A stretch of 64,000 bases of DNA from an uncultured Duodenibacillus sp. (GTDB taxonomy: Bacteria > Pseudomonadota > Gammaproteobacteria > Burkholderiales > Burkholderiaceae_F): positions 21,467-85,466 of the forward strand of contig CALXQS010000007.1 in assembly GCA_944390715.1 (NCBI GenBank), given 5' to 3'. Below the pieces are notes generated by a model. It worked only from the letters and a program-made list of their open reading frames with translations, searched no databases and was not told where the DNA came from. The position numbers and the translations under genes were made by a program. The stretch's first letter is position 1. Every line of letters begins with the position of its first letter. Below are positions 3,509 through 23,721 of this stretch, one piece after another.

Positions 3509-6466
3509 TTAATTCGTCAGGTAGGTATAGATGTCTTTTCTCACGGGTTCGCTGAGCCTGTAGCGAATTTCAAAAGCAGGTGTTTTTTCTTCAAGCACGA
3601 TTGGTTCGGGAGCGCCTTCAGCGCAAACTTCGCCAAGAAAATAGAAGGCTTTGGTTTCGTTGTCGTCCTTGTTTTTGCGCACGAAAAGAAAGATGCGGTT
3701 TTGTTTGTCTTCTTCGCACCGCTTGTAGATGTGGTCAGCGTCCGTTGAGTCCGTTCTGCGGTTTGTTTTGGAGAGCGCAATGAGGCTTTGCTGCGACTCG
3801 AAGTGATCGTGGTACTGGATGGCGTCTTCAGATTTGTCGTAATTGATGAAGACCGGAAGCGTACGCGTATTTTTGTCGTAGCGGTAGCCCCCGATATTGG
3901 TCGCAGGCATGTTTTGCTCCCAATTCAAAAGCCTGCAGACGTCATCGTACGTGTATCTCTCGTAGAGCGTGAATGCTGTATCGCGGTAGCTCTTGCTGAA
4001 GCGCTTTTGGTAGCGGTCAAAAATAAAGGCAATCAAATCGGCAAGATGATGTCTGAGATCAGGCTGCGCGTCAATCAAGGATGCGAAGACAGGGTGCGCG
4101 CGCCAAGTTTCGTCCGCATCGATTGCAATGAAGACGCAGTTGGGTGTTTTGACTTTTTCGTTGACGTTGCGCGCAAAGTTGTTGGTGAGCACGTTGCGGC
4201 AATTGACGAGATGTGCTTTGTCAAAAGAAATTCCTGCGGCCTGAAGTCTCGCGCAGAGAATTTGTTTGAGGTCCAGATCCCCGCGGCCATTGAGGATTTC
4301 CTGCAGAACAATTGCTTCAGAGATGCGCTGTGCGCTGCCGATTTTTGAACTGAGATAGGCCAATATTTCAAGACCGGCATCGCTGATGGCAGGATTTTCT
4401 TCGGAGCTGTCCTTGTTGGGCAAGGACAGCAAAAACTGCGCATAAGAGCGCGTCTTGGCGGAGAAAAATTTAACGGCATCGATTGAGCCGTGTTCATCAA
4501 AATCACGCAGCGACGGCACGCGGCCGAGCTGGTACTTCAGCAGTCGGTAGGCATTTCTGAGTTCGGCCATGGAGTTGGTGCGCGCCGCATCAATGGCTTT
4601 GAAAATGCGCTCGCGAGCGATGACATCGAAATGAATGGTTGAATTGCCGGGAATCGTGTTGGCAATGAGCGTTTTGCGCATCGAGTCTTTTTGGTAGGAC
4701 CGATCGCCCGACAGCGCTACCGGGATCATGTAGTTGTTGTCGTAGTTTCCAATGAAGTCAATGACCACCAGATATTCTTTTCCCGGTGATTTGCGCAGTC
4801 CTCGGCCAAGCTGCTGAATGAAGACGATCGGACTTTGCGTCTGTCTAAGCAATACGACCTGATTGACTTCGGGAATGTCGACGCCCTCATTGAAAATGTC
4901 GACGGTGAGAATGTAGTCGAGCTCGTCGCCGCTGTCGGCGGTAAGTTTAGAGATCGCTTCTTCGCGTGTTTGCTGTGGGTCTTCTCCAGACAAGGCGAGC
5001 GTGCGCAGTCCTGCGGCATTGAATTTTCGGGACAGCTCCTGGGCTTCTTTATTGGTGCTGCAAAACATCAAGCCTTTTACGCGTGTTCCGCTGTAGCCAA
5101 AGAGCTTGACCTGCCTGAGAATGTGTCTGACGCGCGCATCGCTCGTGAGCTTGGAAAAATCAGCAAGATCTCCTGGCTTGAGGTTGTCGTCAACAAATTC
5201 CGTGATGCCGAAATAATGAAAGGGACACAGCAGATTCTGTTCAAGCGCTTGCTGCAGCCGCAAATCGAGCAGGATCTGGTGATTGAACATCGCATAGATG
5301 TTTTCATCGTCGGGGCGATCCGGCGTTGCCGTCATGCCAAGCCACAAACGCGGCTTGTAGTAGCTCATGATCTGCTTGTAGCTTTGCGCGCCTGCGCGGT
5401 GCACTTCATCAATGACGATGACATCGAATGAATTGGCCGCAAAGACTGAAGGCGAGAGATTTTTGACCATGGTCTGCATGGTCGAAAAGACGACGGCTTT
5501 GCCGCTGCGAAGCTGCAGCGCGGATTTGTCCTGAGAAATGAGAAAGCCGTAGCGCATGTCCCGTCCGAGCACTCGCTTGTAGCTGTCGCAGGATTTGCGC
5601 GCGATTTGCTCGCGGTGAACCAAAAACAGAACGCGCGACGGATTGAGCGATTTGACGGCAAAAGCCGAGGCAAACGTTTTGCCTGTGCCGGTTGCGGAAA
5701 TCAGCAGGCCGCGTCTGTCGAGGCCGACATTCTCGGGCATCTGCATCAGCGAGATGATCTTTGCCATCAGGCTTTTTTGCATGCCGTTGGGCGTGATGCG
5801 CTGCGAGTCGGCAATGGGAGCGACATCGGCACCGAGATCGTGCCGCAGCTGCTTTTGTCGGGCATAAGCCTGCTGATAGTCTTCGATGGCATCTCTGATG
5901 GGCAGCGTCAATGGACTGGACCACAGATTTTCAAATTCTGCACGCACGCACTGGGCCATCTCGCCTTTTTCTGCGGCAATCAGCTTGACATTCCATTCAT
6001 GGTTGGTTTTGAGCGCTGCGCCCGTGAGGTTGGAGCTGCCGATGATGAAGCGGCTCTGCGTGCCGTTTTGGAAAATATAGCCTTTGGTATGAAAGCCCTG
6101 AGCCGATGCGTCTGCTTTTGACGTGCAGAACATCCTGACTTCAATGTTGTCGAATTCCCGAAGCTTTTCCAGCGCTTTCGGCTCTGTAAAGGTGAGGTAG
6201 TCTGTTGTGAGAAAGCGTCCCGGGATGCCGCGCTGCTTGAGTTCTGAGAGCGTTTGCAGCAGCGGCGTGAGGCCGGACATCGTCACGAAGGCTACCGTGA
6301 TGCAAAAAGAAGAGCAGCTTCTGAGCTCTTCTTCAATGGCATTGAGAACGCAGCTGCCCGCAAGCGATTCGTTGACCAGAAGCTGCGCTCGGCAGCTTTC
6401 CTCCGAGTCTTCGGATTGATCTAGAAAGGAGGTCTTTAGTCCGGCGAGAAGCTTGAGGCTGTACAT
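3509..6466 (-). CDS. PLD nuclease + SF2 helicase + DUF3427 protein (SauUSI-like type IV restriction enzyme); ORF is open to 6550, so start is uncertain
   Basis: PLD HxK motif FHTKGYIF...GSSNLT; Walker A ATGTGKT, DEVH, MTATP, QQLGRGLR; C-terminal ~250 aa domain resembling DUF3427. Confidence 0.85.
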   Translation of the reverse strand: MYSLKLLAGLKTSFLDQSEDSEESCRAQLLVNESLAGSCVLNAIEEELRSCSSFCITVAFVTMSGLTPLLQTLSELKQRGIPGRFLTTDYLTFTEPKALEKLREFDNIEVRMFCTSKADASAQGFHTKGYIFQNGTQSRFIIGSSNLTGAALKTNHEWNVKLIAAEKGEMAQCVRAEFENLWSSPLTLPIRDAIEDYQQAYARQKQLRHDLGADVAPIADSQRITPNGMQKSLMAKIISLMQMPENVGLDRRGLLISATGTGKTFASAFAVKSLNPSRVLFLVHREQIARKSCDSYKRVLGRDMRYGFLISQDKSALQLRSGKAVVFSTMQTMVKNLSPSVFAANSFDVIVIDEVHRAGAQSYKQIMSYYKPRLWLGMTATPDRPDDENIYAMFNHQILLDLRLQQALEQNLLCPFHYFGITEFVDDNLKPGDLADFSKLTSDARVRHILRQVKLFGYSGTRVKGLMFCSTNKEAQELSRKFNAAGLRTLALSGEDPQQTREEAISKLTADSGDELDYILTVDIFNEGVDIPEVNQVVLLRQTQSPIVFIQQLGRGLRKSPGKEYLVVIDFIGNYDNNYMIPVALSGDRSYQKDSMRKTLIANTIPGNSTIHFDVIARERIFKAIDAARTNSMAELRNAYRLLKYQLGRVPSLRDFDEHGSIDAVKFFSAKTRSYAQFLLSLPNKDSSEENPAISDAGLEILAYLSSKIGSAQRISEAIVLQEILNGRGDLDLKQILCARLQAAGISFDKAHLVNCRNVLTNNFARNVNEKVKTPNCVFIAIDADETWRAHPVFASLIDAQPDLRHHLADLIAFIFDRYQKRFSKSYRDTAFTLYERYTYDDVCRLLNWEQNMPATNIGGYRYDKNTRTLPVFINYDKSEDAIQYHDHFESQQSLIALSKTNRRTDSTDADHIYKRCEEDKQNRIFLFVRKNKDDNETKAFYFLGEVCAEGAPEPIVLEEKTPAFEIRYRLSEPVRKDIYTYLTN

Positions 6467-6562
6467 GGCGGCAACAGGCGCAGATGCTGCAAAGTCAAAA
6501 AGCAAATGTTTTTCGATCGGCAGCTTAACATTGAGTGCGCGCAGATGCACGCTTTTTGCATC

Positions 6563-7465
6563 TCATTTTTCTTTTGGAGCGCCTCGCACGAGAACGTCGA
6601 TGAGAGGTTTCAGCCACCGGCTCTGCTCGCGATGCTTGGCCGAAACGGCAATTCTCAGGCGCCTTTGCGCCCAGGCGTTGGTGAGCTTGATGATGCGCGC
6701 ATGCTTGAGTTCAAAAGCACGTGCTGCAGCGCCGCTTAAAACTGCAATTCCGGCCCCCTGAGAGACCAGGCCGGTCAGAAGCGACTGCTGTCCGACCTGC
6801 ACGCGAGGAACGATTTTGCAGCCCTGCATGCGGGCCTTTTCAAAGATAAAGCGCTGCATTGCGCTTGTGTTTTCCAGACAGACGAACTCATAGTCAAGGC
6901 TTTGCGCAAAATCAATCGCATCGAACTGCGCCAAAGGATGATCTTTGGGCGCAATGACAACGAGCTCATCGTTTCTGTACGGGATGAACTCAAGATTAGG
7001 AAAGGTTCCGCAATAGGCTCCGATGCCGATGTCGGCGCGATTTTCTGAAACCATCTGCACCACTTCTTCAGAGCTTCGCTGTTCGAGCTGAACGTTGACG
7101 GCAGGATATTCAACTAGAAACTGAGCAAGACTTGCAGGCAAAAAATCAAAGGATGCGCCGTAGTTGGCGGCCATGCGGATCACGCCGGCTTCGTGTCGAG
7201 CGTAGGGCAGCAGCTCCTTTTGCATCTGCTCTATTTCTCGGTAGATGCGCTTGGCGTAAAGATTGACGATTTTTCCTGCTTCCGTGAGCTCCACTCCGCG
7301 AACGCGTCGAATGAGAAGCTGCACCTTGAGGGCCTCTTCAAGGTTTTTGATGTGGCTTGATGCGCTAGAGGGAACAATGTTGACGCGCCGGGCTGCGCGC
7401 GTGAGGTTTTCTTCGTCGGCCGCAGCTGAGAGCACTTGCAGGTCTGTTAGTGAAAAGTGTTGCAT
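6563..7465 (-). CDS. LysR-family transcriptional regulator
   Basis: N-terminal HTH (LTDLQVL..NLTRAARRVNIVPSSASSHIKNLEE..LLIRRVRGVELTEAG); divergent from the flavocytochrome gene. Confidence 0.9.
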   Translation of the reverse strand: MQHFSLTDLQVLSAAADEENLTRAARRVNIVPSSASSHIKNLEEALKVQLLIRRVRGVELTEAGKIVNLYAKRIYREIEQMQKELLPYARHEAGVIRMAANYGASFDFLPASLAQFLVEYPAVNVQLEQRSSEEVVQMVSENRADIGIGAYCGTFPNLEFIPYRNDELVVIAPKDHPLAQFDAIDFAQSLDYEFVCLENTSAMQRFIFEKARMQGCKIVPRVQVGQQSLLTGLVSQGAGIAVLSGAAARAFELKHARIIKLTNAWAQRRLRIAVSAKHREQSRWLKPLIDVLVRGAPKEK

Positions 7466-7682: not shown

Positions 7683-9515
7683 ATGAGAAAAAACCGATTC
7701 GCGCTGTTGGCCGGCGCTGCTCTCATGGCAATGACATTTGGCGCATCGGTAAGCGCTGCCGGATTTGCCCCCGACGTCGTCAAGTCTTATTCCCAGGGTG
7801 AGAAGGCATCCTACCTGGCCGGCGCGCACGGCAAGATGGGGCTCAATTGCGAGACCTGCCACGTCGGCGACAAGGTGTCCGATTCGGAAACCGAAATCAA
7901 CGCTAAATGCACGACCTGCCACAATCCTGCAGACCTTGCAAAGAAGACGGAAAAAGAAGGCCTGCCCAATCCTCACAAGAGCCATTTGGGCGATGTGCAG
8001 TGCACGGCCTGTCACTCCGGACACAATCAGTCGGTTGCCTACTGCTCGAACTGCCATGACTTCCCGAGCCTGAAGGACATGAAGTACGGCAAGGGCGCCA
8101 AGGTTGCCAGCCAGTACGAAGATCTTTCGGCTTATGACAACGCCAAGCCCGAACGTACGGAAACGACCGATCTTCTGGTCGTGGGTTCGGGCGCCGCAGG
8201 TTTTGTCGCTGCCTTTACGGCTCAGGAAGCCGGCGTCAAGAACATCGTCATGGTTGAGAAGATGGCGGTGCCCGGCGGCAATAGCCAGCTCGCTGCCGGC
8301 GGCATGAATGCGGCAGGCACTCGCTTCCAGAAGGCAAAGAACATCAACGACAATCCCGACATGATGTTCAAGGACACCATGAAGGGCGGCAAGAATGTGA
8401 GCAACCCGGCGCTCGTCAAGATTCTTGCTGAACGTTCCAATGAATCCATCGAATGGCTCGCCAAGCGCGGCGCAGAACTTTCTCACGTCGGCCTGGGCGG
8501 CGGCGCATCGGCGGCCCGCATGCACGGTCCTGCCGGCGGCGTCTTCGTTGGTCCCTATCTCTCAAAGTTCTTCCGCGAGCATGCCAAGGAAACCAAGCTT
8601 GACCTGAGACTCAACTCCAAGCTCGTCAAGCTCTACACGGACGATAAGGGCACGGTGACCGGCGCCCTCATCAAGGGCAAGCACACCGGTCTGTATCGCA
8701 TCAATGCCAAGGCAGTGGTTCTTGCCACGGGCGGCATTGGTGCCAACAGCAAACTGGTGCAGTCTCTGCGTCCGGACATCAGCGCCGATGTGAAGACTTC
8801 CAATCAGCCGGGCAGCCAGGGCGACGGCATGGTTCTGGCTCAAAAGATCGGTGCTGAAGTTGTCGATGCCAAGGAAATTCAGCTCAATCCGACGCTGCTG
8901 GTCGGCTCGCCTGTGATCATTTCTGAGACCGTTCGCGGCGCCGGCGCCGTCTTCGTCAACCGCGAAGGCAAGCGCTTTATCAGTGAACTGACGACGCGCG
9001 ATGTCACCAGCGCTGCCGTCTCCAAGCAGACGGGCGGCACGGCTTTTGAAATCTTCGACGACAAGGTTCGCAAGAGCGTCAAGCAGACCGGCGCAGCCTT
9101 TGAACTGGGCCTTGCCAAGGAAGGCAAGACGCTGGCTGAACTGGCCAAGAACGCAGGCATTGATCCCAAGAATCTTGAAGCCACGATCGCGCAGTACAAC
9201 AAATACGCCGACGCTGGCAAAGATCCCGACTTCAATCGTCCGGGCATCAATGCCAAGATCAAGGTCGATACGCCTCCGTTCTACGCTATCGAAATCACCC
9301 CCGCCATCCACTACTACATGGGCGGCCTGAAGTTCGACGAGCAGACCCGCGTGGTCAACAAGAGCGGCAAGCCGATCGAGGGCCTTTATGCAGCCGGTGA
9401 AGTCACAGGCGGCGTGCATGGCAAGAACCGTCTGGGCGGCAACTCGATTTCCGAGACGATCACCTTCGGGCGCATCGCCGGTGAAAGCGCCGCTGCCCGT
9501 ATCCTCGGCAAGTAA
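7683..9515 (+). CDS. Periplasmic tetraheme flavocytochrome c (FccA-type fold), substrate uncertain
   Basis: Sec signal; four CxxCH motifs (CETCH, CTTCH, CTACH, CSNCH); VVGSGAAG FAD motif; IHYYMGG and NRLGGNS. Confidence 0.92.
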   Translation: MRKNRFALLAGAALMAMTFGASVSAAGFAPDVVKSYSQGEKASYLAGAHGKMGLNCETCHVGDKVSDSETEINAKCTTCHNPADLAKKTEKEGLPNPHKSHLGDVQCTACHSGHNQSVAYCSNCHDFPSLKDMKYGKGAKVASQYEDLSAYDNAKPERTETTDLLVVGSGAAGFVAAFTAQEAGVKNIVMVEKMAVPGGNSQLAAGGMNAAGTRFQKAKNINDNPDMMFKDTMKGGKNVSNPALVKILAERSNESIEWLAKRGAELSHVGLGGGASAARMHGPAGGVFVGPYLSKFFREHAKETKLDLRLNSKLVKLYTDDKGTVTGALIKGKHTGLYRINAKAVVLATGGIGANSKLVQSLRPDISADVKTSNQPGSQGDGMVLAQKIGAEVVDAKEIQLNPTLLVGSPVIISETVRGAGAVFVNREGKRFISELTTRDVTSAAVSKQTGGTAFEIFDDKVRKSVKQTGAAFELGLAKEGKTLAELAKNAGIDPKNLEATIAQYNKYADAGKDPDFNRPGINAKIKVDTPPFYAIEITPAIHYYMGGLKFDEQTRVVNKSGKPIEGLYAAGEVTGGVHGKNRLGGNSISETITFGRIAGESAAARILGK

Positions 9516-11678: not shown

Positions 11679-12347
11679 CTATGGTGCTTGATCGTTTTTG
11701 CGTGCCTTGAGTTCACGGGCCGTTTTGCCGGCCAGTCCAGTCATCCAAGGAAACAGAGCTTCGTGTTTGGCCCGAAATGCCGCAATCTCCGAGATGTTCT
11801 TCATCGTGCTCTCAACCATGTCGAGACCCTCAAGGAGCATCGTCCGGTGCCGCGGCGCAATGGCAAACGAAATTACAAGGCCTTTTGCGGGAACGCTGAT
11901 GGTGCAGGCTTCAAGGTCGACAGTGACGTCGGTGGGAGCTTCAGTCGAAATAGCCTTGAAAAGTCTGCGGGAGTCTTCTGCCGACACCTTTGCCGCCAGC
12001 AGGCCGTTGTTGAAGCAGTTGGAGTAGAAGATTTCGCCAAACGAGGGCGCAATCACCACATCAATGCCCATTTGCTGCAGTCCCCAGACGGCATGTTCGC
12101 GGCTTGAGCCGCATCCGAAATTGGGGCCGCCGATGATGATGGGGGCCTTCTCAAAACCGGGTTTATGAAAGACGGCACCAGCTTTGGGCGAACCGTCGGG
12201 GTTAAAGCGCAGGAAGTAAAGCGCGCCTTCGGCCAGCCCGCTTTTGTCGATGCCTCGCAGAAACTGCTTGGGCATGATCTGATCGGTGTCTAGATTGTCA
12301 ATGTCAAGGGCGAGCGCGGCGCCGGTAACCTGAGTGAACTTTTTCAC
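11679..12347 (-). CDS. leuD: 3-isopropylmalate dehydratase small subunit (or paralog)
   Basis: DTDQIMPKQFL, NFGCGSSREHAVW; GTG start with AGGAG Shine-Dalgarno. Confidence 0.85.
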   Translation of the reverse strand: MKKFTQVTGAALALDIDNLDTDQIMPKQFLRGIDKSGLAEGALYFLRFNPDGSPKAGAVFHKPGFEKAPIIIGGPNFGCGSSREHAVWGLQQMGIDVVIAPSFGEIFYSNCFNNGLLAAKVSAEDSRRLFKAISTEAPTDVTVDLEACTISVPAKGLVISFAIAPRHRTMLLEGLDMVESTMKNISEIAAFRAKHEALFPWMTGLAGKTARELKARKNDQAP

Positions 12348-12349
12348 GT

Positions 12350-13792
12350 TTATTCTCCTTTGCCGAGCTTGCGCCAGTCGGTAATGCAGCCCGTGACGGC
12401 GGCGGCAGCAGCCATTCTGGGTGAAACAAGGTGAGTGTGGCTGCCGCGGCCTTGACGGCCTTCAAAGTTGCGGTTGGTAGTGGAGGCGCAGCGCACGCCG
12501 GGCTCAAGAATATCGTCGTTCATGGCCAGGCAAAGCGAGCAGCCGCTCATGCGCCACTCAAATCCGGCATCCTTGAAGATCTTGTCAAGCCCCATGGCTT
12601 CAGCATGACGGCGCACGGTCATTGAGCCCGGCATGACCTGAGCGCGTACGCCTGCAGCAATGTGCCGGCCGCGCACGACCTCTGCGGCAAGCTGCAGATC
12701 AATGAGGCGAGCGTTGGTGCACGAGCCGATGAAGACGTGCTGAATGGGAAGCCCTTCCATCGGTTGGCCGGGCTTGAGATTCTGGTATTGCAGGGCGCGG
12801 CGTGCGGCCTGGCGCGCAATTTCGTCATCAAACGACTCAGGGTCAGGGACGCAGTCCGTAATCGGCACGACCTGATCGGGACTCGTGCCCCAGGTGACCA
12901 TGGGTTCAAGCGAGCTTGCGTCAATGACGACTTCCTTGTCAAAGACGGCGCCGTCATCCGTGTGCAGGCACTTTGCATATTCGCGCATGGCTGCGGCTTC
13001 TTCGTCGCTCAAAACCATTGCATGATCTTCGACCCACTTGAAGGCTTTTTCGTCAGGGGCGATCAGAGCGCCTCGAGCGCCAGCTTCAACCGTGAGGTTG
13101 CAAAGCACCATGCGCTCTTCAATGGGGAGCGCCTCCACAACAGGGCCGCAATACTCGACCACGGCTCCAAGAGCGCCGCGTGCAGAAATGCGGCGCAGCA
13201 CTTCGAGCACCAGGTCTTTGGCATATGTCCCTTCGGGCATCGTGCCGGTGATGGTAATGCGCATCGTTGAAGCCATGCGGTAGACAAGAGTCTGCGTGGC
13301 GAGGATGTGCTCGATTTCGGAAGTGCCGATGCCAAAGCTCAAGGCGCCCAGAGCTCCGTGCGTCGTGGTGTGGCTGTCGCCGCAGATGACCACCATGCCG
13401 GGCCGCACCAAGCCTTGCTCTTGCATGACGACATGCTCGACGCCTTGATAGGGGCTGTCGCCGCCGTAAAAGGCGTCAATGCCGAAGTCTTCGCAGTTTT
13501 TCTGCATGTTGAGGGCCTGCTTGAGCGAGGCTGCGTCGTAGATTTTGCGCGGCCATTCGTCGTGCGTTGGAATGATGTGATCGACTACGCACAGGTGCGC
13601 ATCGGGCACCAGAACAGGAAGTCTGCGCTCGCGAACGCCTGAAAAGGCTTGAGGCGAGGTGTATTCGTTGGCAAAGTGAATGTCGCAGTACAGCAGGACG
13701 GTGCTGTCGTCGATGCGAGAAACTATATGCGAATCGACAAGTTTGGCGTAAAGCGTCCTTGGCTGCGTTGTTGGGGTAGCAGTTGGGGTCAT
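12350..13792 (-). CDS. leuC: 3-isopropylmalate dehydratase large subunit (or aconitase-family paralog)
   Basis: CGDSHTTTHG, IGSCTNAR, GCSLCLAMN (three Fe-S cysteines), STTNRNFEGRQG; start placed at MTPTAT. Confidence 0.85.
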   Translation of the reverse strand: MTPTATPTTQPRTLYAKLVDSHIVSRIDDSTVLLYCDIHFANEYTSPQAFSGVRERRLPVLVPDAHLCVVDHIIPTHDEWPRKIYDAASLKQALNMQKNCEDFGIDAFYGGDSPYQGVEHVVMQEQGLVRPGMVVICGDSHTTTHGALGALSFGIGTSEIEHILATQTLVYRMASTMRITITGTMPEGTYAKDLVLEVLRRISARGALGAVVEYCGPVVEALPIEERMVLCNLTVEAGARGALIAPDEKAFKWVEDHAMVLSDEEAAAMREYAKCLHTDDGAVFDKEVVIDASSLEPMVTWGTSPDQVVPITDCVPDPESFDDEIARQAARRALQYQNLKPGQPMEGLPIQHVFIGSCTNARLIDLQLAAEVVRGRHIAAGVRAQVMPGSMTVRRHAEAMGLDKIFKDAGFEWRMSGCSLCLAMNDDILEPGVRCASTTNRNFEGRQGRGSHTHLVSPRMAAAAAVTGCITDWRKLGKGE

Positions 13793-14075: not shown

Positions 14076-14579
14076 GTGCAGATAAGGAAAAGATTTGCGG
14101 TCGTTGTCGTCTGCGGCGTGCTGGCCGGGACTGGCCAGGCCGATGCCGCCAATGAGCTCAGCGCGCGTGAGGCGGCAGCAATTGCCATGAAAAATGCAGG
14201 CGTGGCGGCCGAGGATATCTTCAATCTAAAGACCGAGCACGATGAAGAAAATGGCATAGCGGTCTACGCGGTTGAGTTTGAAACAAAGTACGGCGACTAT
14301 GATTTCTGCGTAGCGCGCCGCAATGGACGCATCATTGATGCGGACTGCGAGGTTCGTGAGGAGTGGATCCGCAGACAGCCTGCCGCAAGAGATTCCGAGA
14401 ACGCCGTCAGGCTCGAGGTTGTGCGCCGCGTGCCGGGCGCCAGCTCTAGCCAAGTGCTGCTGCGCCGGCAGAAAGATCGCTGGGAGGGACTTTTGCGGCA
14501 CGACGGATTCAAATATGAATTTGAGGCTGACAGGCGCACCGGCATTATTTCTGACTGGAATGCCGAGATGCGCCGCTAG
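14076..14579 (+). CDS. Exported PepSY-domain protein (two repeats)
   Basis: GGAGG SD before GTG; signal peptide; LSAREAAAIAMK..VYAVEF..YDFCVARRNGRII and YEFEADRRTGII patterns. Confidence 0.7.
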   Translation: MQIRKRFAVVVVCGVLAGTGQADAANELSAREAAAIAMKNAGVAAEDIFNLKTEHDEENGIAVYAVEFETKYGDYDFCVARRNGRIIDADCEVREEWIRRQPAARDSENAVRLEVVRRVPGASSSQVLLRRQKDRWEGLLRHDGFKYEFEADRRTGIISDWNAEMRR

Positions 14580-15070
14580 GTTTTTTGAGGGATGTCGCTG
14601 AGCTCAACGGAATTTCCGTGCTCCTTGATCAGCTCCAGAAGGTCTTCGGTCTGCAGCCAGACGGTGGCCGTGTTGTCGTTGGGATGCACGCCGATGCGTC
14701 CGCCAAGGAAGTCACGGTCTAAAAACCAGCGTACTCTGCGCTGAGCATCGTTTAAAAGTCCTAGCGGCGTTACTGCGCCGGCGATGAGCCCCAGCATCTG
14801 CATGAGTTCATCTTCGCTTGCAAAGCAAAGAGCGCGCAGGCCGTGCTGTTTGCGAAAGCTTTTGAGGTCAACGCGCTTGTCGCCTTTGATGGTAATGAGA
14901 CAGTACGTCTGTTTTTTGTCATCGCGCACAAATAGGTTTTTGGCGTCGTCCTGCGGATACGGAAGCGCAATTTGGGCGACTTCGGCCATGTTGAAAACGG
15001 CACTGTGCTCGGTAATTTCGTGGACGATTGCCCGTTCGCTCAAAAGCTTGCAAATGTCTTGCTTGTTCAT
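14576..15070 (-). CDS. Prolyl-tRNA editing deacylase (ProX/PrdX, YbaK superfamily)
   Basis: AKNLFVRDDKK, GAVTPLGLLND, HPNDNTAT; the true gene is the C-terminal 164 aa of the 365-aa track ORF. Confidence 0.85.
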   Translation of the reverse strand: MNKQDICKLLSERAIVHEITEHSAVFNMAEVAQIALPYPQDDAKNLFVRDDKKQTYCLITIKGDKRVDLKSFRKQHGLRALCFASEDELMQMLGLIAGAVTPLGLLNDAQRRVRWFLDRDFLGGRIGVHPNDNTATVWLQTEDLLELIKEHGNSVELSDIPQKT

Positions 15071-15259
15071 GTGTTGTTTCTGCATGCAGATGTCCATCGG
15101 CTTTTGTTCATGATAGCGCCAAAGCCATGCGCAGCCGGAGGCTGCAAGCGCATGCGGGCCAATACGAATGGCGCTGTCGCCTAGACCGTCTAGAATCACC
15201 TGCAGGCATGTATGCAGGGCCTTCTCTGAGGGACTGCGGCATTGATGAAAGGAAAAGTC

Positions 15260-16468
15260 ATGACGCTCAAGGATACGATTGCTTTGCTTCAGGCAGCTCC
15301 TGCCGATCCCATCATCGGCATCAGCGATCGATTTCAAAAAGATCCGCGCACCGAGAAAGTCAACTTGACGGTGGGCAATTATCTTGGCCCCGACGGCAAG
15401 ATCCCGTTGCAGGCCACGGTTCACGAGGCGCAAAGGCGGCTTCTCGAGCGGCGTACGGTGCACAGCTACCTGCCGATTGAGGGACTCAAAAGCTTTTGCG
15501 ACGCGGTCGACGTCCTGAGCTTCGGGCGCGACAGCGAAGTGCTTCTTTCCGGCCGCAGCGCAACGTGTCAGGCCATTGGAGGCACCGGCGGGCTTTATCT
15601 CGGAGGCGTCTTTGCAAAAGAGACGCTCGGCGTTTCTCATGCTGCGGTTCCGAATCCAACCTGGGGCAACCATATTGCGCTTTTTAAGAAGGCAGGGCTC
15701 GAAGTCAGTCAGTATGCTTACTACGACAAGGCTGCGGGCGACGTCAATATCGAAGGACTTCTAGAAGATCTTCGTCGACTGCCGGAGCGCTCTCTGGTGC
15801 TGCTGCAGGTCTGCTGCCACAACCCGACCGGCATGGATCTCTCGCGCCAACAGTGGCAGCGCGTGCTTGAAGTCGTCAAGCAGAAGGATCATCTGGCGTT
15901 TCTTGACATGGCTTATCAGGGCTTTGCTGCGGGGCTGGAAGAAGATGCCTGGCCGGTACGTCTTTTTGCCGAGGCGGGCGTCGATTTTCTGCTTTCCGTC
16001 TCGCTTTCCAAAGGCTTTAGCATTTACGGCGAGCGCACAGGCACGTTCACGGTGGTCGTCCAATCGGCCGAAGAGGCCCGCGTCGTGCATACGCTCTTGC
16101 GTCGCCATATTCGTGCGCTTTACTCCAATCCTCCGCGCTGGGGCGCGATGATTGCTGAAGTTGTTCTCAACGATGAAGAGCTCAACAAGGCCTGGAAGCA
16201 GGAGGTCGAAGACATGCGGCTGCGCGTGAAGGCCATGCGCGAAGGACTTGCGCAAGAGGGCAAAAAGCAGGGCGTGTCGCTTGATTTTGCTCTCAAGCAA
16301 AACGGCATCTTTTCGTTTACCGGCTTTACGGCGCAGGAGATGGAAAGGCTCAGAACCGAGTTCGGCGTCTACGGCATCGACAGCGGCCGCATTGCCATGG
16401 CAGGTCTCACCGAACCCGTTCTTGCTCACGTGGCGGGAGCCTTTGCCGCCGTGCTCAAGGCTCGCTGA
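15260..16468 (+). CDS. Aromatic amino acid/aspartate aminotransferase (class I, TyrB/AspC-like)
   Basis: [35 protein letters not shown] (PLP lysine), SGRI. Confidence 0.92.
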
Positions 16469-17861: not shown

Positions 17862-17889
17862 ACCCGCCGGAATCTTTATTCCGGCGGGT
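17862..17889. terminator. Bidirectional terminator between the SBP and the flavoprotein genes
   Basis: 12-bp perfect stem acccgccggaat/attccggcgggt between convergent genes. Confidence 0.75.
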
Positions 17890-17959: not shown

Positions 17960-19498
17960 TTAAATCCAGGATTTTTCCTTTGCAATGTTGCGGCCGGCAA
18001 TGCGGCCGTTGACCAAGCAGTCGAGCGTTGCGCAGCTGCCCAGACGCACAGCGCCGTGCACGCCGCCAGTGGCCTCGCCTGCAGCGTAAAGGCCAGGGAT
18101 CGGCTTGTCCGTCTTGACGTCCACAACCTGCGCGAGATTGTTTGTTTCCAATCCGCCCATGCAATGGTGCACCTTGGGCGAAAGGATGGAGCAGTACCAG
18201 GGGCCCTTGCCGATGGGTTTGGCGCCTGGTGCGAAGTAGCGCCCCATTTCGTCGCCGCTGCCTTTCTTCAAGGCGGCGTTGTAGTCGTCGATGGATTTCT
18301 TCAATCCATCAAGCGGAATTTTGTACTGCTTGGCCATGGCTTCGAGCGTATCAAACTTGTGCACGCAGCCGCGATCGAGCATTTTTTGAAGAATGCCGGG
18401 ACGGCTCTTGACAATGGTGTTGTCCACTGCCTGCTGGTCTGAGAGCGCAATGCACATGTGGCCTTTATTGTTGTTGGTGATGACGGCGTCGGCGCGCACC
18501 TTGCGGTTGGCCAATTCATTGACAAAACGCTTGCCTGTCGTGCAGTCAACCCAAATGCCTTGCGATCCTGCGGCGCCGTTGGCGAAGTAAAGCGCAATGC
18601 CCATGCCCTTTTCTTCAGGCGAATTCCAGGGGCCACACTGTATCCAGTCGGCTTGAATGATGTTGCAGCCGATGCGTGAAGCTTCGCGCCACATCTCCGA
18701 GGTGGCTCCCGGCTGGTTGGTTGTGTCGAACTTGGCGGTGAGTTTGGGGTCGTGCTTCATGCGGTAGGCGACGTCGGCGCCAAATCCGCCGTAGCAAAGC
18801 GCCACGCCTTTGCGTGCACAGATGAATTTTTCTTTGCCCGAGCCCGCCTTGGGGAAACGATAGCCTTCGCGTACCTTGAGCCCCTTGACGCGGCCGTCGC
18901 CGTCGCGAATGATTTCATCGACATAGCAGCGCAGCCGCAGCTCTGCGCCGAGCTTCTTGGCAAGCGCAAGCTCCTTGTTGACGATTTCTGAGCCCGAGCC
19001 GTTGATGGTAAAGAGATGACGCGGCACGGAGTGGCCGCCTTCGGCGCCAACACGGTCCTTGATCCATTCGACGCCGAGCTCCTTTACCGTCCATTCCCAG
19101 GTCGGGTAGGCTTCCTGCGTCATCGTGCGCACCTTTTCCGGATAGCTGTAGCCCAAGCCTTCGCGAATGATGTCTTCGGCAAGCAGTTCAGGTGAATCTT
19201 TGATGCCGAGTTTTTTCTGCGCAGCGTTGCCGGGAACGGCAAGAATGCCGCCGTTGATGATGGAGTTGCCGCCGTGCGTCGGCATTTTTTCCAAAATGAG
19301 CACGCTTGCGCCCGCTTTGCGGGCTTCGATGGCGCAGGCAAGTCCGGCAAAACCCGAGCCGACGACGATGACGTCGACGGTTTCATCCCACTTCGCAGGC
19401 ATTGGGTCCGTGCATTTGGCTTGGGCCGAAGGTGCAAGAAGCGTGCCTGCAGCAGCAGAGCCGGCAATCAAAAATGAACGGCGAGACATTTCGGACAT
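17960..19498 (-). CDS. Tat-exported flavocytochrome c flavoprotein subunit (heme-less), substrate uncertain
   Basis: SRRSFL Tat motif; VVGSGFAG, GAEGGHSVPR, NELANR, VHHCMGG, AVRLGSC; GAGGAG SD before ATG at 19498. Confidence 0.9.
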   Translation of the reverse strand: MSEMSRRSFLIAGSAAAGTLLAPSAQAKCTDPMPAKWDETVDVIVVGSGFAGLACAIEARKAGASVLILEKMPTHGGNSIINGGILAVPGNAAQKKLGIKDSPELLAEDIIREGLGYSYPEKVRTMTQEAYPTWEWTVKELGVEWIKDRVGAEGGHSVPRHLFTINGSGSEIVNKELALAKKLGAELRLRCYVDEIIRDGDGRVKGLKVREGYRFPKAGSGKEKFICARKGVALCYGGFGADVAYRMKHDPKLTAKFDTTNQPGATSEMWREASRIGCNIIQADWIQCGPWNSPEEKGMGIALYFANGAAGSQGIWVDCTTGKRFVNELANRKVRADAVITNNNKGHMCIALSDQQAVDNTIVKSRPGILQKMLDRGCVHKFDTLEAMAKQYKIPLDGLKKSIDDYNAALKKGSGDEMGRYFAPGAKPIGKGPWYCSILSPKVHHCMGGLETNNLAQVVDVKTDKPIPGLYAAGEATGGVHGAVRLGSCATLDCLVNGRIAGRNIAKEKSWI

Positions 19499-19664
19499 GA
19501 TGTTTTTCTCCTCGTGTTGATGCGAGATGCATGTGACTGACGCAAGAATGCTTTTGTGAAAAAGAAAAGCGTCGGACATACGTTCAGTCTTGCCGAAAAG
19601 AAAAACTTTTGCTCTTTAAAAAGGAAAATATAATTTGTGAAATCAACAAATTAAATTTATTGCA

Positions 19665-20624
19665 ATGGCTCGAAGCGCAACGGAAAATTTGACGGCCTGG
19701 AAGCTTTTGCTCTCGCTTGCTCAAGGGGGTGGAATTTCCGAGGCTGCCTTCAGTGCTGGGATGGATATCGCGGCCTGCTCAAGACTGCTGCGCCGGCTTG
19801 AGGATGAGCTCGGATTCAAATTGATCGATCATTTCAGCCGACCGGCCAAGCTTACGCAGGAGGCTGTCTCGATCCTGCCTGCCGTGGCGGGCTTTGCGGC
19901 AAGCTTTGATCGTCTGCAAAGCGCCTGCAGCGCATGCCGAAGCGTTCCGCTTGCGATCCATCTCGGAATTCCGGTGAATGTCGCGCGGCGAGGCTTGTCG
20001 GCCGTTCTCAAAGAGTACGAAAAGATTGATCCGGCCATGCAGTTTGTGACGGTTTCTGATGCTGATCATGAAGACGTTCTTGACGGCAAAGCTGATGTTG
20101 CCTATTTGCCGTACCGCCCTTCGGCCGAAGGATTGATGTTGTGGCGCATCAATGAAATCGGCAATTGCTTGCTGGCAAGCCCCGCGTATCTTGCTCGCTG
20201 CGGCGTCCCGAAGCATCCCCGCGATTTGATTCGACACTCGATCATTGTGCGATCAGGGCGTCACTATCCGGTAACCAGGCAGCTTGAGTGCGAAGAGCAG
20301 CGCGTGCCGTTGATGAGCGCCCGAGTCGCTTTCAGCGGCGATGTTCCATCCGGCCGCGAGGCTCTTTTGGCCGGCGAAGGCATTGCCATAGATTTTTCTT
20401 TTCATGCTTTTCAGGCGGAAATCGAGGCTGGGCTCGTACAGGTTGTTATGCCCGGCTGGCACCGACCGGCGTGGCTCATGACGCTGGCCGTCTCGCGCTC
20501 GAGTATGAGCAATACGCGATTGATGAGCTTTTGCCGGTGGTTTGCTGCGCATGAGGCGCGAGCCTCAAGAATTCGCGCGCAGGAAGTCCGTGAATATGTG
20601 GCGAAGATAAAAAGTCGTGATTGA
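19665..20624 (+). CDS. LysR-family transcriptional regulator
   Basis: HTH (ISEAAF..ACSRLLRRLEDELGFKLI..RPAKLTQ), LASPAYLARCGVPKHPRDL effector domain; divergent from the flavoprotein. Confidence 0.85.
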   Translation: MARSATENLTAWKLLLSLAQGGGISEAAFSAGMDIAACSRLLRRLEDELGFKLIDHFSRPAKLTQEAVSILPAVAGFAASFDRLQSACSACRSVPLAIHLGIPVNVARRGLSAVLKEYEKIDPAMQFVTVSDADHEDVLDGKADVAYLPYRPSAEGLMLWRINEIGNCLLASPAYLARCGVPKHPRDLIRHSIIVRSGRHYPVTRQLECEEQRVPLMSARVAFSGDVPSGREALLAGEGIAIDFSFHAFQAEIEAGLVQVVMPGWHRPAWLMTLAVSRSSMSNTRLMSFCRWFAAHEARASRIRAQEVREYVAKIKSRD

Positions 20625-20730: not shown

Positions 20731-22086
20731 ATGGCATCTACAGCAATCGACAGCGTGGTGCATGGGTATTTGTTTAGTACCGACGAGATGCGCAGAATTT
20801 GGTCTGATGCATCTTGGGTGCAGAAATGGCTTGATGTTGAAGCCGCTTTGGCCAAGGCGCAGGGCGAGCTGGGCATTATTCCTGCTGACAAGGCGCACGC
20901 CATTGTGCAGCACGCCGACGCGGCTCTTTTGGATTTGCCGGCAATCGGCGAGTATTTCAAAAGCTCGATTACGCTGGTGCCGCTGCTGAAGGCATTCAAG
21001 GAGGCGCTGCCCGGAGATGTCGGAGAGTTCGTGCACTGGGGCGCAACCAGTCAGGACGTCATGGATACGGCGCTGGTGCTGCTCGAACGGGAGTCTCATC
21101 AAATCATTTTGCGCGACATGAAGGCTTGCCTGAGGCACGCTCTGGAGCTGGCACGGAAGTACCGCAATACGGTTATGGCCGGTCGCACGCATGTCGTGCA
21201 TGCCATTCCGATTACCTTCGGCTATAAGGCGGCGGTTTGGGCCGATGAGCTCGGCCGGGGGATTGAGCGTCTCGAAGAGATCGGCAAGCGCCTTTTTGTC
21301 GGCGAGATGTCCGGCGCTGTTGGAACGCTCGCCTCTCAACCCGACAAGGGGCTTGAGACGCAAGAGCGCGTGATGCAGATTCTGGGGCTCGGGACGCCCG
21401 TCATAGCCTGGCACGTCGCGCGCGACAATCAGGCTGAATTCATCAGCGTGCTGGCGTTGTGCGCAGGTACGCTCGGGCGCATCAATCATGAGATCTTTAC
21501 GCTGCAGCGCACGGAAATTTTGGAGCTCGAAGAGCCATTTTTCGCGGGCAAGGTCGGCTCCTCGACGATGCCGCACAAGCGCAACCCGGCAGTGCTCGAA
21601 AACGTGCTTGCGCTGTGCCGCGGCGTGCGCAGCATCGCGCCTTTGATGACCGAGGCGATGATTAATGAAAATGAACGCGATTGGTCGTGCTTTATTTCGG
21701 AATGGGAGGCGATTCCGCGCGCCTGCCATATGATGGGCGGCGCTTTGCAAAAGACAAAAAATATTCTCGAAAACCTCATCGTCTATCCTGAGCATATGGA
21801 GCGCAATCTCAATGCGCAAAAAGGTCTGATGATGAGCGAGTGCGTGATGATGCATCTTGCCGCCAAGCTCGGACGCTACACGGCGCATGACATCGTCTAC
21901 GAAGGCTGCATGAAGGCCTATGAGCAGGAGGTGCCGCTGAAGGATGTCTTGATGACGATGCCGGAGGTGACGGAAAATTTCTCTGCAGAAGAAGTCGAGC
22001 GGATGCTCGACGCACACAGCTATCTTGGTCGCGCGACGGAATTTGTGGATCGCGTAGAGGCCAGATGGTCGGCCAAAGCCGTTTAG
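20731..22086 (+). CDS. Adenylosuccinate lyase/fumarase superfamily lyase (PurB/PcaB/2SL-like)
   Basis: VHWGATSQDVMDT, GRTHVVHA, signature GSSTMPHKRNP. Confidence 0.85.
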   Translation: MASTAIDSVVHGYLFSTDEMRRIWSDASWVQKWLDVEAALAKAQGELGIIPADKAHAIVQHADAALLDLPAIGEYFKSSITLVPLLKAFKEALPGDVGEFVHWGATSQDVMDTALVLLERESHQIILRDMKACLRHALELARKYRNTVMAGRTHVVHAIPITFGYKAAVWADELGRGIERLEEIGKRLFVGEMSGAVGTLASQPDKGLETQERVMQILGLGTPVIAWHVARDNQAEFISVLALCAGTLGRINHEIFTLQRTEILELEEPFFAGKVGSSTMPHKRNPAVLENVLALCRGVRSIAPLMTEAMINENERDWSCFISEWEAIPRACHMMGGALQKTKNILENLIVYPEHMERNLNAQKGLMMSECVMMHLAAKLGRYTAHDIVYEGCMKAYEQEVPLKDVLMTMPEVTENFSAEEVERMLDAHSYLGRATEFVDRVEARWSAKAV

Positions 22087-22095
22087 AAAATAGGC

Positions 22096-23721
22096 ATGAA
22101 AAGGCTTTTGTCCCGAAGCGCGCTTTTGGGGCTCGAGGTTTTTCTGATCGGCTCTGTGCCGCTTGCGGCCTTTGCCATGAGCTTTCTTCATGACAAGGTG
22201 TTGTCCGAGCTGATGCCCGGCAGGCTCTCCTATGAAGATCTCGATGAAGCCTCTTTTGCGGCGCAGCTCGACGAACAAGCGCCAAGCCGCTTGGTGATTG
22301 TTTCGTCTGAAGACGGCGTGATGTCGGTGCGCGTCTTTGCGAGCTCTCCGGCTGCTCAGAGAAGTCTTGTTCTTTGTGCAGATCCTGCTGCTGGGGCACT
22401 TGCTCAAGTGCGGGCAGAGGACTACGCAGGCGCGGCCGAAGGACTTCAAAGGCCGTCGGCCAAGAGCGGATTTCAGGAAATCTACCGAGCCTTTATTGCC
22501 GACAGCGACGTGCTCATGATGCAAAGCGCCCGCAACACGGCAGCCGTAGGAAACTTCTTTGATCCTGCTGAGTCTCGGCTGGCTGAGGGGGAATCTGGTT
22601 TTATTTGGTTTGTCAGACACGATGAAAAGGGGGCGCCGCAGGTGCGCATTCGTCCTGCCAAGGCTGTGTATGCAGGCATTGCAAATGTGATGCACACGCA
22701 GGATGCGGGGCAGTTCGGAGAGATGTTTTCCTACGGCGTGAATGCAAGCACCATGACGCATTTGTCGGTGTCGTCAGATGCGTCGGACTGGCGGCGGATC
22801 AAACTGAAGTTTTCTTCTCAAAAGGCGAGCGCCTTGGTCGACGAGGCCGGCGGGTTCGGTCTGCATACCAACGCAAATTTTTCATCATTTTTGTCGGCAC
22901 GAAACATTCCCGGCATTCGCGATTATTCGGAAAATCCAGGCTGGCACTGGGAGCTGACTCCTTGGTCGCTGCAGTACAGCTACGGAGGCGTTCGGGCCTC
23001 CGATGCTTCGGGCGGCGATGCGGTGCTGCGCGCTCTGGCCGTGATGGGTCCGGATCAAGAGTGGGTCTTCAAGGGCTATGTCACTGCTTCGCACGAAAAT
23101 CTTCAGAATTTTTATGCCGCACAAAGCGCGACGTCGTCGCTTTTCGGTGCTGGCATGTCTGTGCGGCGGGATTTTGCAAAAAATACGCACTTTAGACTTC
23201 GTGCCGACTATGGGTATGCCAGCGCCGAGCGCAGCTGGTCCTCGACAAAAGCTGACGATGACGATCCGCTGGCTTTGCAGTACTTGTATGGGGAGGCCCT
23301 TTTGGGGGCGGAGCTGCCTTGGGGGAGACTGCATGCTGTCGGCGCAGAGCTTGCCGGCGGCTGGCTTAAGGTGGAGCAGCTTGGCGCGGGCAGCAGCGAA
23401 GCCTCTGATGCGAAGCGTCTGGCTGGCGCATTCTTTGCCAAAACCTATTGGAACAGCACCTTTAGGCTTGCTCGCATGGATTGGACGACAAGCGCGCATT
23501 TATCCGCCACCTACCTGACGGATCCTTCCTTTGCTTCGGAGTTTGAGTATCTCAATCGACGCTTCGGCAGCTACGACGAAAAAAACAGACTGTATGCCAG
23601 AGCCGGGTTCGGCATCGGGCTTGAGCGCAAATATTGGTCGCTCAAGCTCGATGCTTCTCAGGAGCGCTCCGGCGAGTATGCAGGATATGCATTGAGCACT
23701 TCAGCTCAGTGGCGGTTTTAG
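22096..23721 (+). CDS. Putative autotransporter-like outer-membrane protein
   Basis: Signal peptide; C-terminal ~290 aa of alternating amphipathic strands ending YALSTSAQWRF (beta-signal). Confidence 0.55.
   Translation: MKRLLSRSALLGLEVFLIGSVPLAAFAMSFLHDKVLSELMPGRLSYEDLDEASFAAQLDEQAPSRLVIVSSEDGVMSVRVFASSPAAQRSLVLCADPAAGALAQVRAEDYAGAAEGLQRPSAKSGFQEIYRAFIADSDVLMMQSARNTAAVGNFFDPAESRLAEGESGFIWFVRHDEKGAPQVRIRPAKAVYAGIANVMHTQDAGQFGEMFSYGVNASTMTHLSVSSDASDWRRIKLKFSSQKASALVDEAGGFGLHTNANFSSFLSARNIPGIRDYSENPGWHWELTPWSLQYSYGGVRASDASGGDAVLRALAVMGPDQEWVFKGYVTASHENLQNFYAAQSATSSLFGAGMSVRRDFAKNTHFRLRADYGYASAERSWSSTKADDDDPLALQYLYGEALLGAELPWGRLHAVGAELAGGWLKVEQLGAGSSEASDAKRLAGAFFAKTYWNSTFRLARMDWTTSAHLSATYLTDPSFASEFEYLNRRFGSYDEKNRLYARAGFGIGLERKYWSLKLDASQERSGEYAGYALSTSAQWRF

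Follow-up and report, generated by a model that had tools for sequence, protein, structure and literature searches.

A heme-less flavoprotein reductase without an adjacent cytochrome gene in an uncultured gut Duodenibacillus

Split enzymes of the flavocytochrome c type are represented by Shewanella woodyi ArdAB and by SO_3056/3058 and SO_3300/3301 of Shewanella oneidensis (10.1101/2024.02.11.579808; 10.64898/2026.04.22.720169). ArdAB combines a flavin adenine dinucleotide (FAD) subunit exported by the twin-arginine translocation (Tat) pathway with a Sec-exported tetraheme subunit, and reduces solely acrylate and, more slowly, methacrylate; in ArdA and other flavocytochromes linked to dddY, the residue equivalent to His365 of Shewanella Fcc3 is Gly, and a Thr is replaced by Tyr (10.1101/2024.02.11.579808). 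Urocanate reductases are described as typically having acidic residues at the positions of Glu177 and Asp388 of S. oneidensis UrdA, whose activity depends on Asp388 (PMC7921117; 10.64898/2026.04.22.720169). For Sutterella, Little et al. describe "high-reductase" arsenals whose members sit beside genes for cytosolic regulators and mostly have no known substrate (10.1101/2022.12.26.521950). Here, we analyze a gene at positions 17960-19498 of a 64,000-nucleotide stretch (the window; contig C7:21467-85466) from the 2.2-Mb genome of an uncultured Duodenibacillus, which is assembled in 46 contigs (denoted C below). The gene likely codes for the FAD catalytic subunit of a split periplasmic flavocytochrome c 2-enoate reductase, one of about 33 paralogs in this genome.

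The catalytic subunit and its active site

The full catalytic domain of the 512-aa (amino acid) product lies above the curated cut-offs of the superfamily profiles: TIGR01813 ("flavocytochrome c") gives 416 bits over residues 42-502, where 285 is required, and PF00890 (FAD_binding_2) matches with E=5e-65. In the ESM Atlas, it falls solely into generic "flavocytochrome c" clusters. The translation displays the motifs SRRSFL, IQCGPW, ELANRK, KVHHCMGG and GAVRLGS; the FAD dinucleotide-binding motif starts at residue 42, placing the FAD domain 15 residues past the Tat signal peptide, and the same type of Tat motif is found in many paralogs of this genome. A motif scan of the 512-aa translation found no CXXCH, CXXXCH or CXXXXCH, and the profile search found neither a heme nor a flavin mononucleotide (FMN) domain, with no match to PF04205 (FMN_bind); the fused tetraheme cytochrome domain of the Fcc3 type is likewise missing. 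The SRRSFL signal and the absence of heme motifs bear out the heme-less Tat flavoprotein that an earlier note had proposed from the letters of the stretch. The sequence match to UrdA predicts a two-domain fold comprising FAD and clamp domains.

Residues were mapped by HMMER alignment against all solved structures, and the trees discussed below were built from uncharacterised homologs and paralogs. The top solved relative is the urocanate reductase UrdA (6t85, E=2e-71), followed by the flavocytochrome c3 fumarate reductases (Fcc3) of Shewanella (1d4c, E=3e-63). Around the C1-carboxylate contact of Fcc3, WIQCGPWNSP of the reductase aligns with YIQAHPTYSP of Fcc3 and YIQSYPICSP of UrdA, so that Gly289 stands opposite Fcc3 His365, as the earlier note had read from IQCGPW in proposing the loss of the fumarate-binding His. 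Its further observation that the catalytic Arg (ELANR), HHCMGG and VRLGS are retained also holds: Arg332, His444 and Arg485 align with the triad shared by Fcc3 and UrdA. On the clamp helix, ITEAVRG of Fcc3 is replaced by LYFANGAAG. Fcc3 Thr377 falls opposite Tyr304, Phe305 or Ala306 depending on which of three alignments is taken, and Thr, Glu and Asp are kept in none of them. Nor do the proton-channel residues Glu378 and Arg381 have a counterpart in the three alignments, LYFANGAAG holding neither Glu nor Arg.

Following the motif scheme of Bertsova et al. (10.1101/2022.01.20.477176), Motif I (Fcc3 Arg402/His504/Arg545) is kept as Arg332/His444/Arg485, Motif II (Fcc3 His365 and Thr377) is lost, with Gly289 and Tyr/Phe/Ala in its place, and Motif III is reduced to the catalytic Arg. 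The UrdA-specific positions have changed as well. The position of UrdA Glu177 is Ile85 and the zone of Asp388 is Tyr/Phe/Ala, neither of them acidic, and the Tyr (or Met) that marks UrdA at position 373 is replaced by Gly289.

Orthologs, cytochrome linkage and the reductase arsenal

The gene is followed by a terminator hairpin (Table 1), a convergent SBP_bac_3 gene lies just 117 bp from its stop codon, and a tblastn search of the window with 25 small cytochromes matched only a fused heme domain at 7818-8063. Therefore, the reductase gene is monocistronic and has no cis-encoded cytochrome partner. The earlier note had seen no adjacent cytochrome either; cytochrome-like sequence occurs in the window only within the separate flavocytochrome at 7683-9515, as its heme domain. 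A remnant of a downstream cytochrome gene was considered as well and ruled out by the same gap and the same search.

We defined the subfamily view as the best 120 of 4,511 scoring database proteins (56-90% identity), which share the signature WIQC[G/A/T/V]PW..P.EKGMG; the position of Gly289 is occupied by Gly, Ala, Thr or Val in its members. The pocket varies within it: the group of the reductase has IALYFA[N/Q]GAA, and that of its closest paralog, C3:21732-23354, has IGWTFSQSGAAEY. These differing variants suggest that several specificities may coexist within the one subfamily.

Gene neighborhoods were compared over 80 genomic loci. The sole neighbor conserved with the orthologs is a divergent LysR-type regulator, present at 18 of 22 ortholog loci. 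In Parasutterella and Sutterella, this regulator is divergent from an operon of the reductase and a tetraheme cytochrome. At eight loci (L004, L005, L006, L009, L012, L020 from Parasutterella excrementihominis, L024 and L026), a gap of about 10-130 bp separates the reductase gene from a downstream Cytochrom_c3_2 gene, which codes for a tetraheme cytochrome of 112-126 aa with its own signal peptide; this layout recurs in many loci of paralogous groups. No such gene stands beside the reductase in the window, in L001 or in L002. L001, a Duodenibacillus metagenome-assembled genome (MAG), codes for a 96%-identical protein and has eleven syntenic genes, which marks the organism of the window as a Duodenibacillus-like member of the Sutterellaceae. 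In a tree of 86 members built by FastTree, with tentative deep branches, the reductase groups with L001 and L002 in a Duodenibacillus clade without cytochrome genes, next to a cytochrome-bearing Parasutterella clade, and cytochrome linkage switches state at least 11 times. In codon alignments, the ratio of nonsynonymous to synonymous substitution rates (dN/dS) comes to 0.034 for the comparison with L001 and 0.11 for that with L002; the gene is under strong purifying selection and is not decaying. Since it is so conserved despite the absence of the cytochrome gene of its orthologs, the pattern points to the sharing of cytochromes within the arsenal.

Several further features of the ortholog loci were recorded. 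L002 (Duodenibacillus MAG E08__bin76) has a second, 86%-identical copy of the reductase, likewise without a cytochrome gene; we found no counterpart of this copy in the genome of the window, whose next paralog shares only about 60% identity with the reductase. L025 (labelled Acutalibacteraceae) and L027 (labelled Hallella faecis) feature a LysR-reductase-porin unit with a protein 64% identical to that of the window. Both nest among Mesosutterella and Dakarella in the tree, though binned to Firmicutes/Bacteroidota genomes, and are probably mis-binned Sutterellaceae contigs rather than cases of gene transfer. In the Parasutterella orthologs L020, L004, L005 and L006, the region just past the reductase-cytochrome pair holds a BD-FAE/Abhydrolase_3 esterase gene (in L020 at 12015-13028, minus strand) and a gene for a di-heme cytochrome c peroxidase.

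Candidate donors are coded elsewhere in the genome. Two cytochromes, C3:23474-23851, downstream of the closest paralog, and C44:5888-6334, beside another member of the subfamily, are 55-64% identical to the partner cytochromes of the orthologs. A third, C2:151256-151603, is a stand-alone tetraheme cytochrome among unrelated genes and resembles the small tetraheme cytochrome (STC) shuttle of Shewanella. The single stand-alone NapC/NirT-family cytochrome of the genome, C6:4659-5216, has unrelated neighbors (a ModE-like regulator and aminopeptidase N) and resembles CymA. Together, C6:4659-5216 and C2:151256-151603 have the appearance of a CymA/STC-style hub that supplies about 30 periplasmic reductases. 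The shared donor encoded elsewhere that the earlier note had envisaged gains from the tetraheme gene missing relative to the orthologs and from the presence of related cytochromes and a NapC/NirT protein in the genome, but it is a donor that we infer.

A profile search of the genome contigs yielded 43 TIGR01813 matches, which correspond to about 33 paralogs at the level of open reading frames (ORFs). A fused tetraheme domain is found in three of these, one being window 7683-9515, and a fused FMN_bind domain in another three; one more has a separate FMN_bind neighbor (four FMN_bind matches in the genome). A small Cytochrom_c3_2 tetraheme gene adjoins about nine, and the remaining paralogs, including the reductase studied here, have neither a fused domain nor an adjacent tetraheme gene. 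His occupies the Fcc3-365 column in only about six of the ~33; the others have G, T, I, L, N and so on. The full set of fumarate motifs occurs in other paralogs, for example C3:44548-46491 (VQAHPT, SETVRG, TTRD) and C6:84859-86271 (IQTHPT, TEAVRG). No other form is as common in this genome as the heme-less, His-less Tat flavoprotein; given the architectures of the paralogs and the few that keep the His, the reductase is therefore no oddity. The rarity implied by the earlier note finds no support in this comparison, the form also having been described already for Sutterellaceae. The reductase shows the features of an arsenal member, namely a Tat signal, tens of PF00890 paralogs and an adjacent divergent LysR regulator, and is an ordinary, uncharacterised member of an already published arsenal type. 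We found no paper that characterises its subfamily and nothing specific in the literature on enzyme assignments in Sutterellaceae.

Mechanism and substrate class

In the split 2-enoate reductase that we consider likely, the adjacent LysR regulator would probably induce the gene when substrate is present, and the protein would fold with FAD in the cytoplasm and be exported by Tat in the folded form. In the periplasm, the single carboxylate of the substrate would be held by Arg485, His444 and Arg332. By homology with Fcc3 and UrdA, hydride would pass from FAD N5 to the β-carbon and a proton from Arg332 to the α-carbon. The second-carboxylate site of the fumarate reductases would be taken over by Gly289, Trp291 and the Tyr-Phe-Ala stretch, accommodating a mono-carboxylate 2-enoate that is neutral or hydrophobic and comes from the acrylate, methacrylate, crotonate or aryl-acrylate class. 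Electrons would pass from menaquinol through a NapC/NirT-type (CymA-like) cytochrome and a small tetraheme cytochrome acting in trans to FAD and on to the substrate; a donor in trans is proposed because the sister genera have a cytochrome gene after the reductase gene and this lineage has none.

Since the second-carboxylate site is replaced and the acidic imidazole ligands are absent, a neutral mono-carboxylate 2-enoate would most likely be the substrate class. Fumarate is disfavoured by the loss of both Motif II and the proton channel; His365 has become Gly, and the zone of Thr377/Glu378/Arg381 is replaced under every alignment, in agreement with the earlier view that this is not a fumarate reductase. 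The mono-carboxylate enoate that the earlier note had proposed is a sensible class, and ArdA, the single characterised enzyme for which the same His-to-Gly change is reported, reduces acrylate; the urocanate option included in it is not supported.

Several points weigh against this assignment. The alignment of the clamp helix is ambiguous, making the description of the pocket approximate. Positions that contact fumarate do not by themselves fix specificity, as the Vibrio ruber Crd illustrates (10.1101/2023.03.04.531086). Further, ArdA is active only when co-expressed with its cognate ArdB (10.1101/2024.02.11.579808); hence, a partnerless FAD subunit might use another donor, or be inactive unless the cytochrome of a paralog is co-induced. 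On the regulatory side, we infer both the LysR box and the induction.

Within the mono-carboxylate class, the pocket, with Trp291, Tyr304 and Phe305 aromatic and neutral, would fit an aryl-acrylate and a small mono-carboxylate enoate equally. A reductase of the cinnamate, hydroxycinnamate or indoleacrylate type, in which the ring would find space at Gly289 and be stacked upon by Trp291, Tyr304 and Phe305, is a rather unlikely specific assignment. Cinnamate reductases have arisen repeatedly in the superfamily, including in the Arg-retaining clade 1, according to the available part of Little et al.; among the S. wadsworthensis (Sutterella) acceptors given there, C4-dicarboxylates, urocanate, shikimate and sulfoxides, cinnamate is not named (10.1101/2022.12.26.521950). 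The BD-FAE-type esterase gene beyond the cytochrome gene in the Parasutterella orthologs hints weakly at ester-bound substrates of the hydroxycinnamate type, but it is convergent, limited to one clade and a member of a generic α/β-hydrolase family. An ArdA-type acrylate or methacrylate reductase, whose pocket Tyr304, Phe305 and Trp291 would narrow around a small substrate, we regard as unlikely. It would share with ArdA and the dddY-linked flavocytochromes the change of His365 to Gly (10.1101/2024.02.11.579808), under one alignment perhaps also the Thr-to-Tyr change at Tyr304, and, through the orthologs, the two-gene architecture of a Tat FAD subunit and a tetraheme cytochrome. However, neither dddY nor acuI is linked to the locus, acrylate derived from dimethylsulfoniopropionate (DMSP) is marine with no obvious gut source, and the pocket variants (G/A/T/V; IALYFA vs IGWTFS) suggest several substrates in the subfamily.

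A urocanate-type reductase making imidazole propionate or a related product, a prospect that the earlier note had raised for its relevance to the host, is extremely unlikely. UrdA is the best-scoring solved relative, and split flavocytochromes proposed to act on substituted urocanates are known from Shewanella and have also been noted in Sutterella (10.64898/2026.04.22.720169); yet Glu177, Tyr373 and Asp388 of UrdA correspond to Ile85, Gly289 and the Tyr-Phe-Ala zone, the protein lacks an FMN_bind domain, and neither a histidine nor a trimethylammonia-lyase is linked at the locus or at the compared ortholog loci. The acids being absent, Tyr373 being Gly, and both the FMN_bind domain and a linked ammonia-lyase being missing, urocanate is disfavoured. 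It is also very unlikely that the gene codes for a stranded, non-functional subunit left behind by the loss of its cytochrome gene. While the cytochrome gene of the sister-genus orthologs is indeed absent, a terminator follows the stop codon and ArdA is inactive without ArdB (10.1101/2024.02.11.579808), the reading frame is intact with all catalytic residues present, the comparison with the L001 copy, which has no cytochrome gene either, gives a dN/dS of 0.034, the LysR partner is still in place, and an adjacent cytochrome is likewise missing from about half of the loci of the subfamily and from most paralogs of the genome.

Beyond the split 2-enoate reductase itself, we tentatively raise the doubtful prospect that the WIQC[G/A/T/V]PW..P.EKGMG subfamily reduces a gut enoate so far unrecognised as an acceptor in respiration, its FAD subunits sharing a pool of tetraheme cytochromes in trans. 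If so, the repeated loss of dedicated cytochromes would be tolerated, and the respiratory periplasm would be a modular plug-in system and not a set of fixed two-subunit enzymes. De-orphaning the subfamily would add one more substrate-product pair to Sutterellaceae gut respiration and would also test the borrowing of paralog cytochromes by partnerless FAD subunits.

Locus organization and comparison with known systems

The coordinates of the locus are collected in Table 1. The listed ORF of the reductase extends to 19579; because GAGGAG lies at 9-nt spacing and the homologs align from the residue at that codon, the ATG at 19498 is probably the start, and the longer ORF is probably not used. The intergenic inverted repeat (13-nt arms, 7-nt spacer) is a plausible LysR box.

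Table 1. Features of the reductase locus (window positions)
Feature	Position	Strand	Basis or equivalent
FAD-only reductase subunit gene, 512 aa	17960..19498	-	Translation; PF00890; TIGR01813; UrdA/Fcc3 best solved relatives
Stop codon of reductase gene	17960-17962	-	
Ribosome-binding site GAGGAG	19508..19513	-	9 nt before the probable start ATG at 19498, read from sequence
Predicted Tat signal peptide, residues 1-27 (MSEMSRRSFLIAGSAAAGTLLAPSAQA)	19418..19498	-	SRRSFL, hydrophobic stretch and AQA in translation
Gly289 codon	18632..18634	-	Aligns with Fcc3 His365 (C1-carboxylate contact) and UrdA Tyr373 (specificity marker)
Tyr304-Phe305-Ala306-Asn307, clamp helix	18578..18589	-	Zone of Fcc3 Thr377/Glu378 and UrdA Asp388
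Arg332 codon (ELANRK), predicted catalytic proton donor	18503..18505	-	Fcc3 Arg402; UrdA Arg411
His444-His445 codons (HHCMGG), predicted carboxylate binding	18164..18169	-	Fcc3 His504; UrdA His520/521
Arg485 codon (VRLGS), predicted carboxylate salt bridge	18044..18046	-	Fcc3 Arg545; UrdA Arg560
Intrinsic terminator hairpin, 12-bp stem, 8 G-C pairs, T-rich tail	17862..17889	-	70 nt past stop
LysR-type regulator, divergent	19665..20624	+	Pfam HTH_1 and LysR_substrate
Inverted repeat AAATATAATTTGT-N7-ACAAATTAAATTT	19626..19658	.	Divergent intergenic region; candidate LysR-type regulator box

A functional link of the reductase to the Lyase_1 gene (20731-22086), a 541-aa outer-membrane-like protein, an SNF transporter or the SBP_bac_3 gene, which codes for an amino-acid-binding protein, was considered and set aside: we take these flanking genes as unlinked because they are syntenic in L001 alone among the ortholog loci. 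The gene at 20731-22086 (plus strand) codes for a cytoplasmic Lyase_1/ADSL_C enzyme whose best NCBIfam match is the sulfopropionylcysteine synthase XcbD, at 462 bits and below the cut-off of 600. The 541-aa protein of 22096-23721 (plus strand) has a signal peptide, no Pfam match and a C-terminus ending in WRF, and looks like an outer-membrane barrel; this pair accompanies the reductase solely in L001, the near-identical Duodenibacillus MAG. Elsewhere in the window, 7683-9515 (plus strand) codes for a second reductase of the superfamily, with a fused N-terminal tetraheme domain (four CXXCH, Cytochrom_c3_2). Its His365 position is Asn (IQLNPT), with SETVRG and TTRD retained, and a LysR gene (6563-7465, minus strand) is divergent from it. 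The 365-aa product of 14576-15673 (minus strand) combines a C-terminal YbaK/aminoacyl-tRNA editing domain (residues 223-347) with an N-terminal region of about 200 aa without a family match. Finally, 3509-6550 (minus strand) codes for a 1013-aa protein uniting a PLD-like nuclease, an SF2 helicase and DUF3427, an architecture of the restriction/defence type.

Among known systems, Fcc3/FccA of Shewanella shares with the reductase the TIGR01813 catalytic domain and the equivalents of Arg402 and His504/Arg545, whereas its fused tetraheme domain, His365, Thr377, Glu378 and Arg381 are all absent here. UrdA of S. oneidensis (PDB 6T85-6T88) is likewise a periplasmic respiratory reductase, with Arg411, His520 and Arg560 conserved; it differs in its N-terminal, covalently flavinylated FMN_bind domain and in Tyr373, Glu177 and Asp388. 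The arsenal of S. wadsworthensis, as far as it is set out in the available part of Little et al., is similar in its signal-peptide-bearing PF00890 proteins, the tens of copies, the helix-turn-helix regulators alongside and the Arg-retaining clade 1; that part of the source (10.1101/2022.12.26.521950) names no enzyme-substrate pair for these reductases. ArdAB (Swoo_0275/0276) offers a further likeness: a Tat FAD-only subunit of the Fcc3/UrdA family in which the C4-carboxylate triad is kept and the His has become Gly, with the tetraheme cytochrome c as a separate gene, here true of the orthologs. This likeness to ArdA is drawn from its published description, and the equivalence of its Thr-to-Tyr change to Tyr304 depends on the alignment. 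The reductase differs from ArdAB in its gut host and in having neither an adjacent cytochrome gene nor a dddY/acuI context, as no DMSP-lyase-like (dddY) or acuI neighbor occurs at its locus or at the compared ortholog loci.

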